Below are positions 401 to 39,325 of a DNA stretch of 64,000 bases, piece by piece (the first letter of the stretch is position 1; every line of letters begins with the position of its first letter). A program made the translations under genes and the position numbers. The DNA is from Eledone cirrhosa. Its lineage: Eukaryota. The notes below the pieces were generated by a model. It was not told the DNA's origin. It did no database searches and was given only the letters and a program-made list of their open reading frames with translations. The stretch spans positions 313,410,001 through 313,474,000 of the forward strand of contig OZ024740.1 of the NCBI GenBank assembly GCA_964016885.1, read 5' to 3'.

Positions 401-490
401 TCCTCTTGATAAGTCGGCAGACCTCGCAAGGACTCTATATCTTTATGATATATTGTTTTTGTTTATGCCACGAAACTACGTAGTCGAGGA
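401..490 (+). ncRNA. Type-I hammerhead ribozyme motif, U3-A8 core variant, long stem II, in cassette downstream of (TA)n
   Basis: TCCTC-TTGATAA-GT(C)GGCA...TGCCAC-GAAA-CTACGTAG-TC/GAGGA: stem I TCCTC:GAGGA, palindromic stem III, GUC cleavage triplet. Confidence 0.75.
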
Positions 491-762
491 ATTTAGGAGC
501 AGTTTAGGTATGATACATTTTATTACTAATTATATCTAAATGTTTCTTCTCTCCTCATAATGTATTTTTAACTCTGATACTGGTTCAGTCTAGTTCAACT
601 GAATTGGTCTGTCCCAGTCATTCATTGAGCAACATCGGTGAAGTTGGCACCCTTAACTCACAGTTGGGTGCGGATGCATTCATGTATATATGTGTGTGTC
701 CGCATGTATCTGTGTGTTTCTAAATATATTGTTATATATATATATATATATATATATATATA

Positions 763-960
763 CACGTGTCGGCTGAAAAATTCATAGGCTGACGAGGTTA
801 CTCTCATGAAATGACTAAATGAGGTTTATTTTTCAACATAGTCCCTGGGAAGAAACAATGCAGTTATTAATAAGAAGGGTTTAAATTAATACATGCAAGA
901 TTTCCCAGCTCTAGCATCACTCCTTCATAGTCACCCTTTAAACTTTTCAGCCGACATTTG
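763..960 (-). mobile_element. Mariner/Tc1-type MITE (~200 bp), diverged copy
   Basis: TIR-like ends GTCGGCTGAAAAATTCATAGGCTGAC / CTTTTCAGCCGAC, TA flanks; homologous to 14046-14243. Confidence 0.7.
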
Positions 961-2003
961 TATATGCACACACGTATGTGTGAGTGATGTTAAAGATTGG
1001 AACGTTGGCAACTAATAAGATTAGAATTTGACAGTTAAGATATATGTGATAATAATGACGTCTTAACCATTAGGTATTGTATGACTAAATGTTTTGTAAG
1101 ATTGGATAATAAGTCAACTTTTAGTTTAGCAGCCCTGAAACAAAATATCAACAAAAAAACCCCATTGAATTGTCTCCGACAGACAATTTACGATACGTTG
1201 GAATTAATTCTGACTTAACCGGAGACAGATATCTAAAGTTGATTGCATTTCAATGCAATTGTACTAGTTCCTGTTCTGTTTTCCTCCATTTGACAACTTA
1301 GTTAAGTTCCGATTGTCATAATTTGCCTCAGTTTGAATTCCATCAACCCATTTTATTCTCTGACCCAGCAAACATTTCAAACTTTCAATGCGTAAATTTT
1401 GAGAATAAAATTTCCTCAGATTTGCCAAATTTGAAACAATATCTCAATATAGGATGGTTGAAATCTTGTAATTTGTCCTCCACGTAGGGCTCTCGTAATA
1501 TATATATATAGCCCCAGGAATATGACTCCTCTTCTTCTATTCTGGTCATAGGATTATTAATTATAAGTCACTGATGTTACTTATTTGAATATATAAAAGA
1601 AAGAAATGACATGGTATTCTTTTTTTTTTTTCAAGAACATTTGTGATTTAAGTAAAATTTTGTTATTTATTCCGGAAAAAAGTGACCGTTGTCTTTGAAG
1701 ACCCTCTTTAATGGTTGATGTCCAGCTTGAACGTCTCCAGGTTGGTAGCTTTAAGCAAAATACGGGCCAAGGAGAAGTTTCAAAGGGAACCAGTTTTTAA
1801 CAGGAAGGATTGATCGAGGAGTTTAATACGGGTTTCAAGATTGGTAAACGGTGGAGAGAGATAGATAGAGATAGATAAATAGATAGAGAGGGAGAGTGAG
1901 AGAGATGAGTCGGTTTAGCTTAGATGCAGGGTAGCACATATCTAGTCAACTCAGAGAAATCCGAATCTTTATGAGTGATAAAGGAGGCTCAGCATCAACG
2001 TGC

Positions 2004-2208
2004 TAGTAGTAGTAGTAGTAGTAGTAGTAGTAGTAGTAGTAGTAGTAGCAGCAGCAGCAGCAATAGTAGTAGTAGTAGTAGTAGTAGTAGTAGTAGCAGC
2101 AGCAGCAGCAATAGTAGTAGTAGTAGTAGTAGCAGAAGCAGCAGCAGCAGCAGCAGTAGTAGTAGTAGTAGTAGTAGTAATAGTAGTAGTAGTAGTAGTA
2201 GTAGTAGT
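2004..2208. repeat. (AGT)n/(AGC)n microsatellite
   Basis: Direct reading. Confidence 0.97.
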
Positions 2209-2365
2209 AACACTGTGATATGAATTAAGTACTCTAATGTGACTTAACGGTTATTAACAGTTCAGAACTGGGGTAGTTTCTGGTCTTGAGGAGAAAACCT
2301 AGATTTTGAAGAACAGTGAAATACGTAAAACAGTGAAATGAGGAAATTGTAGCCAGGTCAGTATA

Positions 2366-2575
2366 TCTTCTTCTTCTTCTTCTTCTTCTTCTTCTTCTTC
2401 TTCTTCTTCTTCTTCTTCTTCTTCTTCTTCTTCTTCTTCTTCTTCTTCTTCTTCTTCTTCTCCCACTTCTTCCTGAGAGGATCGTGGGGGCAGAGTCCTC
2501 AAACACTCCTTCCAGCAGATCCTGTCAGAAGCAACCGTCTCCAACTGATCCGGCTGGATCCCAGGTCAGTATACG
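2366..2575 (-). mobile_element. RTE-like LINE 3' end with (GAA)n tail
   Basis: Minus strand encodes ...LETVASDRICWKE (A.DR..W C-terminal motif) followed by a (GAA)n tract at 2366-2461. Confidence 0.5.
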
Positions 2576-2759
2576 ATGCAGGAAAAGCATGAATGTCCGA
2601 ACATCTTATTTCCTTTTCTGTAAATTTGAAACTTTGTCTTATTGTAATCAATATTTTAGTTGATTATTCTGGGAATAAGAAAGTAGGAGAGAAGAATCTG
2701 GAGAGAGGAGTGACTATAACGGGGTTATTAACCAAAAGATAGAGAGGGTAAGGGAAACA

Positions 2760-36760: not shown

Positions 36761-36960
36761 ACGTAAGTTCAAATCCCCAGAACGACTACCCGACGTAATC
36801 ACTGGACCGAATAACATGAATAATCTATTATATTCTGACTTTTCACAGTTGTCTTCAAAGTACTGATCTAACGTGAGTTTCTTCCCTTTTGGGAAGTGAC
36901 TTCTTCTGCACATGCGTTTTCGTATAATTGTTTTTCCTTTTCCGTATAATCTCACTTAAA

Positions 36961-37001
36961 CTGAGCTGATGATCCGACTAAGGTGAAACAATTGTTCTCG
37001 G
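36961..37001 (+). ncRNA. Minimal hammerhead ribozyme in the Penelope 3' pLTR (mutated mirror at 34981-35021, minus)
   Basis: CTGAG-CTGATGA-T-CC-GACTAA-GG-T-GAAA-CAATTG-TT/CTCGG. Confidence 0.8.
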
Positions 37002-37549
37002 AAATGGTGAATTAACTGTTGCTTCAAACACATATACATATATATGTATGTGTTTACACATATCGCTCTCTATATCTTTACAGATACAGTGTATTACAGA
37101 GTGCATATAATTAAGCGATAACATACAATTAACTATTTATAAATCGTTTCAGTGCATCTAATTTCATATGCAAAATTAGTTCTTGGTCTAGCTTGTTTAT
37201 GTGCATAATTTTGTAAATTTCTATAGAGCTCCCCACCTCGAAATACCACTCTGTCTATCCTTGACCCTCTGTCACCACTTTATGTTGATGATAAAAATAT
37301 ATAGCGACGAATTTGCTGAGTCATTAGAGTGTCGGATAAAAACCCTTGAGGTACTTCTCCAGCTTTATGAGTTCCGAGTTCAAATCCAGTCAATGTCAGC
37401 TTTGTTTTTTATTCTTTGAAGTCTGATAAATAAATATCAGTTTGGAACAGTGGATTGATGTAATTGTTAGATTCCTTGCGGCATCAATTCTGTTTTTTTT
37501 TTGTTTTTTTTCTTTCTGACTCCAGAATATTCACTTTACAGTAATCCCA

Positions 37550-37760
37550 GTATCGAGTCTGATAAGATTTGTGGTCGAGCCCGTAGCAGTCGAGACTTCT
37601 GGTGTCCTTGGCCCTAGTGTCACCTCCATACTCACCACCATCGGCACAGAGCTGGCTACCCGCTGGTGTGAGCCTCGCGAGCTGGAATGGCTCTTCCAGC
37701 GTGTCTCCCTCACAACCCTCCGAGGAAACGCCTTCTCTACTCTGTCTGCTGGGACCACGG
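37550..37760 (+). pseudogene. CRE-like RLE non-LTR 3' fragment
   Basis: VEPVAVETSGVLGP...LEWLFQRVSLTTLRGNA. Confidence 0.7.
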
Positions 37761-38374
37761 GGTGGCCAGACCATGGGTCGCCATTTTCTCACAATAGTGA
37801 AAGATCGGGAGGGCAGGAGAGACGGAGGCAGTGACAGTAGGAGTTTGGTTCCATTGTGTTCGGACCTGATATATATACATATATTTATTTACCACATCAC
37901 ATTAACTGTATATTAGATCTATATATATATATATATATATATTTTTAAAATCCAACGTCAATAAATACGCCAGGATTTTTTCATTCTGATGATTGAAAGC
38001 AACATTTTTTTGCTTTTAAGAAACCACTGGTAAATGAAATAATTGCCTTATGTTGTTTATTACATAACTATAACTATATATATATATATATATATATATA
38101 TATATATATATATATATATATATATATATATATATATATATATATATATATATATATATATAAGTATGTATACGTACATACATATATGTATACAGACGTA
38201 CATTAGTATGTATATATATATACATACATGCACACATATATATATATATATGTACGTATGGATTTACCGAACATTTATTATAATGCTCGGTTTGTTTGTA
38301 AACAAACATCCCGAATTAAGCCGTACAGTGTTTAGCAACCATCGTTACCCATTTGTTCAACACTGACAAAGGAA

Positions 38375-38415
38375 CGATGTACTAGTTTCAAGCTTATTAG
38401 CTATCGTCAGCACCG
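38375..38415 (-). ncRNA. Intact minimal type-I hammerhead ribozyme
   Basis: Minus strand: CGGTG-CTGACGA-T-AGCT-AATA-AGCT-T-GAAA-CTAG-TA/CATCG; GUA triplet. Confidence 0.82.
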
Positions 38416-39228
38416 TATACCTTCCTGCCAGATGATTGAACGTCTGAAAGTTTATACTTTCCTTATGCATATTAACGGCTGAGCAGCCTAACTTTCATAT
38501 CGAGTGAGTTAATCGACCGGGCGCACCGAAAACGATAAATGCATGTATGTATATATATACATACTACTGTAGGTGTGTATTCATATATGTATGTACGTAT
38601 ACATACTTATATTTAAGTAACAGCCGTACTAAGAATGAGAAATGAAATTTCGTTTCATTTTTTCGGTGCGCCCAGCCGATTAACTCACTCGTCTGCTTTT
38701 CCCCTTTCGCCTACCCCGATGCAGCCCATCGGGCCTCTGTAGCATCAGTTCCCCACCCCTGCAATTTTAAGATAGAATTGGTCGATTACGTTTTACTAAC
38801 TACTTATAGCAGATGTGTTCGGCCCCTTTAATTTTGTATCCGTTTTATTACTACTCAATTTCTACAAGTGTTTTTCTATTCTCAACTTATTAACCTGTAA
38901 TTGTAAGATAGCATTGTGATTTTTTTTATTCATTTCTCACTATCTAATTTTATATATTTTTTTATTTCTTTCTATTATCTTTTATTGTCTCCTACTCTCA
39001 TTCGAATTACCTATTCTATAACCCCCCCCTCCATTTAATACACTATCCTTAGAATCTGCTGTATACATATCACTTTCAACGCTTGACCGCTCCACTCACT
39101 CCCCTATTGTTCTACAGGCAAGTTCAGCCACCCCTACCTCCCACCAAATGCCATGATAGACTTATTTGTGTTTACAACAAATTTTAACCAATCCTCTTGA
39201 CAACTACAATCTTCCCATATAAGGAAGT

Positions 39229-39325
39229 ACCCCCTTGACAAGTTCAGCTATTTATTCACCAGGTTAAAAATTCTAATTTAGTCCAGAAATAGCCGTCGAA
39301 ACGGCTTGAGCTCTGCCGTCGGGGT
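39229..39325 (+). ncRNA. Hammerhead motif, U3-A8 variant, long stems II and III
   Basis: ACCCCC-TTGACAA-GTTCAGCTATTT...AAATAGCCGTC-GAAA-CGGC-TTGAGCTCT-GCCG-TC/GGGGT. Confidence 0.68.

Follow-up and report, generated by a model that had tools for sequence, protein, structure and literature searches.

Hammerhead ribozymes (HHRs) in their active fold contain a pair that nucleotide C3 forms with G8, with G12 as the proposed general base (PMC3884650, PMC6257768). A compensatory form of the core, in which this pair is replaced by U3-A8, occurs naturally and is active in vitro; its first natural report is that of Perreault 2011 (PMC3088659), and it has also been described from the Penelope-like repeats of Schistosoma, where a descriptor of its own yielded about 1,300 matches (Cervera and De la Pena 2014, PMC4209133). 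For the HHRs of Penelope-like elements (PLEs), the U3-A8 core is already published. The latter work also states that dimeric cleavage follows from a stem III that is short and palindromic, and that an extra base after A9 is frequent in PLE HHRs. The stretch considered here, referred to as the window, consists of 64,000 nucleotides (nt) of AT-rich, microsatellite-laden animal DNA from Eledone cirrhosa (contig OZ024740.1, positions 313,410,001 to 313,474,000 of the forward strand; assembly GCA_964016885.1, 3.0 Gb), and it contains four HHR motifs in which the core reads UUGANAA in place of CUGANGA. Based on comparisons of their sequences, it is probable that these motifs represent three lineages of type I HHR which are copied by Penelope-like enzymes, and in which U3-A8 is the known compensatory form and keeps self-cleavage. 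The initial annotation of this DNA had reported UUGANAA cores with stem II, GAAA and a GUC triplet at four positions, and all four are found there in a type I layout:

401..490, plus strand: site 1 HHR, an intact type I motif with core UUGAUAA at 406-412 (U3-A8), stem I at 401-405/486-490, a stem II insert of 59 nt, GAAA at 472-475 and GUC ending at 485.
26810..26897, plus strand: site 2 HHR, a decayed U3-A8 motif with core UUGAAAA at 26814-26820, a 59-nt insert and GUC ending at 26893.
27328..27370, plus strand: site 3 HHR, a decayed small U3-A8 copy with core UUGAUAA at 27333-27339 and a 14-nt insert.
39230..39325, plus strand: site 4 HHR, with core UUGACAA at 39235-39241 (U3-A8) and a 56-nt stem II insert.

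Stem III is the palindrome CUACGUAG at site 1, with cleavage predicted after C485, and a stable 5-bp helix at site 4, where GUC ends at 39320 and cleavage is predicted after C39320. The nucleotides G12-A13-A14 and A15.1-U16.1 and the NUH cleavage site are present at sites 1, 3 and 4. At site 2 the general base G12 is changed to C at 26880; the loss of this G had been placed at 26808, but that position merely marks where the motif begins. A descriptor requiring three stems around the core, with stem I open, matches sites 1, 2 and 4 and also copies of the site-3 family, from which the window copy of site 3 departs once in stem II and once in the palindromic stem III. All four sites are members of repeat families.

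The described systems closest to these motifs differ from them in several regards. The HHRs of the Schistosoma mansoni PLE Cercyon (PMC4209133) are, in the published description, likewise of type I with U3-A8, a long helix II, a palindromic or minimal helix III and an arrangement in inverted close pairs. However, stem II inserts here are as long as 56-59 nt, stem III of site 4 is a stable 5-bp helix in a Hydra-clade element, and both pair states, as well as amplified mismatch states, are traced within families. The HHRs of Perreault 2011 show the same compensatory core change in several natural examples, whereas the section of that paper describing them contains neither switching at the subfamily level nor replicated mismatch lineages, both of which are present here. 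Hydra-clade PLEs, as characterized in Craig 2021 (PMC8557442), share with site 4 the motif DKT, RWR for RWK, the CxCX5C linker, the absence of CCHH, (TA)n targets and an HHR near the 3' end; but all 26 of the 26 HHR rows for this clade in file S2 of that work are CUGANGA, unlike the site-4 family, which is mainly U3-A8 with a C3·A8 lineage. Lastly, the metazoan non-LTR (long terminal repeat) retrozymes, according to the accounts in PMC7229834 and PMC7761336, resemble sites 1-3 in being non-coding tandems with one type I HHR per unit, in co-occurring with PLEs and in the strong self-pairing of their predicted circles, although their units measure 150-400 nt in animals, as compared with a 591-nt unit and a U3-A8 core here. 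In the literature searched, neither U3-A8 in Hydra-clade elements nor an amplified C3·A8 lineage was found, though Lunse 2017 and the supplements of PMC4209133 may contain such variants; UUGANAA, UUGAUAA and CUGAGAA were not found as words in that search, in which CUGANAA did occur.

The strongest evidence for compensatory change comes from two related families, one of them that of site 3, the window copy of which is as follows:

27285..27535, plus strand: partial copy of the site-3 unit, a non-coding tandem unit of 312-316 nt lying between (TA)n runs.

Among the first 100 of 145 matches to this family, a count by hand gave 44 with U3-A8, 47 with C3-G8 and 9 with a mismatched pair, and when the two subfamilies were aligned (16 and 13 copies), they differed at 17 of 241 positions, which include both position 3 and position 8. 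A related family shows the same type of pattern (59 U3-A8, 34 C3-G8 and 7 mismatched among the first 100 of its 1,107 matches), and in a rough tree its split sits on a separate starred branch. The paired C3-G8/U3-A8 sister subfamilies represent true covariation, as had been proposed, and within the superfamily of site 3 there have been two or more switches of the 3/8 pair. U3-A8 is a recurrent and already published state (PMC4209133, PMC3088659), and it should not be interpreted as defining one new group, as the initial annotation had suggested. Other differences were also observed between the site-3 subfamilies (27316-27324 in the window and in the family): where stem II begins with A-U in the C3-G8 sister, the U3-A8 subfamily has an A·A opposition, and it carries a donor-like CAG/GTGAGT directly before stem I, which the sister lacks.

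For the site-1 family, whose genome pattern left positions 3, 7 and 8 open, 5,949 of 5,973 exact genomic matches are U3-A8; the exceptions comprise 11 matches without U3 (all with A8) and 13 without A8, and none is C3-G8. These counts at positions 3 and 8 reject decay as the origin of U3-A8, in agreement with what had been claimed. The window holds one copy of the corresponding unit:

230..730, plus strand: partial copy of the site-1 tandem unit, a young non-coding unit of 591-597 nt, flanked by (TA)n.

This copy, which is likely a non-autonomous retrozyme-like element, is 97% identical to the unit at locus L016. Copies of the family form short tandems spaced 591-597 nt apart, which are often preceded by an inverted copy and end in (TA)n, and the longest stop-free frame in the 591-nt unit is 86 amino acids. 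As in the site-3 family, where the spacing is 312-316 nt, there is one HHR per unit. In a comparison of one unit each, the circular folds of the site-1 and site-3 units were more stable than those of shuffled sequences (-165 versus -132 +/- 6 kcal/mol with 40 shuffles, and -75 versus -56 +/- 5.5 kcal/mol with 60 shuffles, respectively). Across loci L001-L030, the site-1 copies have two end points: counted from the cleavage site, 24 of 55 contexts stop after about 70 nt and 18 after about 240 nt; the PLE tail, where the literature describes it, is 30-40 nt and so shorter than these distances.

Although the four families had been thought to have unrelated stems, sites 1 and 2 align with a z score of 8.2, and site 1 aligns with six relatives of site 2 at z scores of 8.8-16.3, with the cores masked. 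From these alignments, site 2 is an old relative of the site-1 lineage, and because the two are homologous the four motifs make three lineages. The G12 lost at site 2 is kept in 19 of 23 of its relatives.

The HHR of site 4 lies within the following element:

38688..39340, plus strand: 3'-terminal pseudo-LTR of a Hydra-clade Penelope-like element, truncated at its 5' side.

This piece continues for about 17 nt beyond the cleavage site, where it ends in (TA)n, and is 94% identical over 658 nt to a full-length element at locus L200, in which an inverted segment, a repeat with HHR, one open reading frame (ORF) and a second repeat with HHR follow one another. Both the sequence and the translation indicate that the ORF encodes a reverse transcriptase (RT) followed by a C-terminal GIY-YIG endonuclease. 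It contains the motifs DKT and RWR, its endonuclease lacks CCHH and has one Cys between GIY and YIG, and the CxCX5C linker, degenerate in L200, is intact in L216. Feature look-alikes of the site-4 ORF carry RVT_1/GIY-YIG. Pfam gave no match for L200 or L204, and site-4-type ORFs were recognized by neither Pfam nor PDB. Based on these motifs, which were read by eye against PMC8557442, the element is assigned to the Hydra clade. Within this family the HHR lies 0.7-1.4 kb behind one family of PLE ORFs, and the elements display a partial tandem of the pseudo-LTR with an inverted 5' copy and insertion into (TA)n. Of the 85 site-4 copies that end in (TA)n, 72 stop 17-19 nt past the cleavage site, and therefore their template spanned the scissile bond, being either uncut or religated. 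Site-4-type repeats were also seen beside quite different PLE ORFs (L219, L233 and L201), which may be due to module sharing or nested insertion. Further, the sampled loci contain short end pieces of the element in very large numbers, frequently placed back to back as palindromes within (TA)n; those in the window are:

11168-11317, 34670-34817 and 47466-47584: terminal fragments of the site-4 element, containing only the 3' half of the HHR.

Exact patterns built from the window copies of sites 2, 3 and 4 gave 1, 2 and 24 matches, respectively, since each of these copies differs from its family. The apparent uniformity of the site-4 family in this search (U3-A8 in 24/24) is therefore misleading. 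The family itself comprises 3,067 exact matches, with U3-A8 in 77 of the first 100, and here again U3-A8 is not a product of decay. However, C3·A8 is present as CUGAGAA in 541 of the 3,067 matches and in other forms in another 38, and G8 is found in 59 (12 C3-G8, 45 U3·G8 and 2 A3·G8), so that the 3/8 pair is mismatched in at least 626 matches, mostly belonging to replicated lineages. The initial annotation had named canonical family consensuses, or single changes as common as the double change, as evidence that would contradict it. The canonical sister of site 3 and these mismatched site-4 cores go part of the way in that direction.

In a tree that retained 19 of 21 ORF rows, the ORFs of the CUGAGAA elements (examples of which are L303, L305 and L306) form a 100/100 clade among the U3-A8 elements. 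Some sub-branches of this clade are starred, and nested in it is a pair that carries U3-A8; a tree of the repeats (99 rows) agrees with it in outline. The element at L305 is full-length and has CUGAGAA in all three of its repeats, and outside the core pair the motif is no less intact in CUGAGAA copies than in U3-A8 copies (34 versus 68 copies). CUGAGAA is, in this case, a replicating lineage with full-length copies rather than scattered decay, and one of its descendants has returned to U3-A8. Fixed differences between the CUGAGAA and U3-A8 ORFs, 14 silent and 11 replacing in 405 codons, suggest, small as these numbers are, that the CUGAGAA protein remained under selection. A further lineage, smaller and of the U3·G8 type, has flanks of its own and is represented by L226, L274, L275, L280 and L281.

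To place these families among the HHRs of the genome, a stem-pairing descriptor was applied to 864 kb, made up of the window and 80 stretches of the genome of 10 kb each. It gave 79 matches, viz. 57 C3-G8, 18 U3-A8 and 4 with mismatched cores, as compared with 0.3 C3-G8 and 0.7 U3-A8 per shuffle (3 shuffles), which rules out a chance origin of the motifs. This genome is rich in hammerheads, among which those with U3-A8 are a common minority. Searches limited to CUGANGA would here overlook about a quarter of the paired-core matches (18/75), as had been anticipated. All 14 multi-copy clusters have a paired majority (9 C3-G8 and 5 U3-A8), and the ORF-linked clusters other than the site-4 family are fully paired. 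One mismatched singleton proved to be a decayed copy of a C3-G8 family (39/53 C3-G8), and a second is a unique sequence. A long stem II had been noted as a trait of the U3-A8 motifs; however, inserts of at least 46 nt occur in 11 of 30 distinct C3-G8 motifs and in 4 of 9 distinct U3-A8 motifs, and the length of stem II does not go with the type of core.

According to the explanation that we favour, tandem transcripts of sites 1-3 would self-cleave after GUC, yielding unit-length or circular RNA, and cleavage would require dimers wherever a short palindrome makes up stem III, but would take place as a monomer at site 4. PLE proteins would then copy the unit or circular RNA of sites 1-3 into (TA)n. 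These units share the insertion anatomy of the site-4 PLE (TA targets, partial tandems and inverted 5' copies), and they are probably non-autonomous and retrozyme-like. Selection would act on a few master copies and keep positions 3 and 8 paired, while single copies subsequently decay, as at sites 2 and 3; the constraint would be tight for the non-coding units but loose for the element of site 4. The likely reason for this looseness is that an insertion template need not be cut, so that mismatched cores may survive and act as stepping stones between paired states. In an active PLE, single mutants at positions 3 or 8 are reported to lose cleavage while insertion in vitro persists (PMC11167929, where one PLE HHR is also described as cleaving only in the presence of protein), and the replicated CUGAGAA lineage fits this dispensability of cleavage, as does the template spanning the scissile bond at site 4, which is consistent with a weak dependence on cleavage. 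The two related families and the site-4 family together provide a population record of a catalytic pair, in one genome and on near-identical backgrounds, which covers sister states that are paired as well as mismatch intermediates that have been replicated, and this is material for the question whether Penelope-like elements need HHR cleavage.

Several observations weigh against this explanation. In the minimum-energy folds of the window copies, stems I and II are formed only at site 1 (z -1.9), and sites 2-4 show no clean HHR fold (z +1.2, -0.6 and -0.7). The site-1 family is young, and its uniformity reflects one event and not continuing selection. All trees derive from short alignments, and the one that separates the related family's split is not converged and includes junk rows. 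Upstream of the units a PLE endonuclease is rare (2 of 204 matches in one case, 1 of 151 in the other), and since no autonomous partner of sites 1-3 was found in the sampled loci, their mobiliser is proposed on the basis of anatomy. About one fifth of the site-4 matches break the pair, and the loose constraint is seen in one autonomous family. Alternatively, the U3-A8 motifs could be relics, the HHRs no longer mattering and the pairing being inherited from a few ancestors and not maintained. The amplified C3·A8 and U3·G8 cores of the site-4 family, the ends of its copies past the cleavage site and the dispensability of cleavage in vitro would all fit relics; but such inheritance does not readily account for close sister subfamilies having undergone the double switch twice independently, for position 7 being free to vary and stem II covarying while 3 and 8 stay paired, or for the paired state of all 14 multi-copy clusters, and we regard it as unlikely. 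That U3-A8 marks a distinct, undescribed variant-core group with a long stem II is very unlikely. Its frequency here (18/79 descriptor matches), the wholly canonical Hydra-clade rows of Craig 2021 and an Rfam scan of the window, in which microsatellite matches dominate and no hammerhead appears among 150 of 261 matches, are in its favour, whereas the form has a dedicated published descriptor, occurs as a sister state inside families and shows no link to stem II length.

The mismatched CUGAGAA core is, on balance, probably a dead HHR, and if so, it provides a natural in vivo case of a full-length PLE lineage that went through several rounds of replication with its core unpaired. It could be argued that the pair is in fact kept, with C3 pairing to G7 in a shifted register, so that the lineage carries a working HHR with an undescribed core. 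G7 is present in 541 of 579 C3·A8 matches, while U3-A8 matches with G7 number only 44, and both the intactness of the remaining motif and the frequent extra base after A9 in PLE HHRs could be read in the same manner; if true, CUGAGAA would be a bridge between U3-A8 and C3-G8 without loss of cleavage. However, a single origin explains the link between C3 and G7, and the shift would shorten the conserved core loop by one base. Such a shortening of the HHR core loop is poorly tolerated. Further, a natural CUGANAA HHR is inactive (PMC8490949, where the relevant passage does not give position 7). A working CUGAGAA ribozyme of this kind is accordingly quite improbable, and the dead core remains the preferred reading for this lineage.

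Besides the four sites, the window also holds at least 6 HHRs with the canonical C3-G8 core from other repeat families, and a separate degraded PLE:

22644 (minus strand), 22836 (plus), 23309 (plus), 36966 (plus), 37986 (plus) and 38410 (minus): canonical C3-G8 HHR motifs.
35229..37010, plus strand: separate degraded Penelope-like RT-endonuclease element, with a 3' repeat carrying a canonical C3-G8 HHR (core 36966).

The motifs at 22644 and 22836 form an inverted pair. In the degraded element, the RT-endonuclease ORF (35229-36708, plus strand) is split in three pieces, and its inverted 5' repeat, in the vicinity of 34975-35020, has the core change G8C. Elsewhere in the genome, an array of eleven tandem copies (L098:281-3381, minus strand) consists of a 310-nt unit with a canonical HHR, the 3' part of which is common to the site-3 family. 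A long interspersed nuclear element (LINE)-type element at 60171-63485 (plus strand) has an endonuclease and an RVT_1 reverse transcriptase in two long frames; LINE-type fragments lie near 28500-29258 and 59460-60038, and a near-perfect inverted repeat with arms of about 40 bp is located at 25171-25264.

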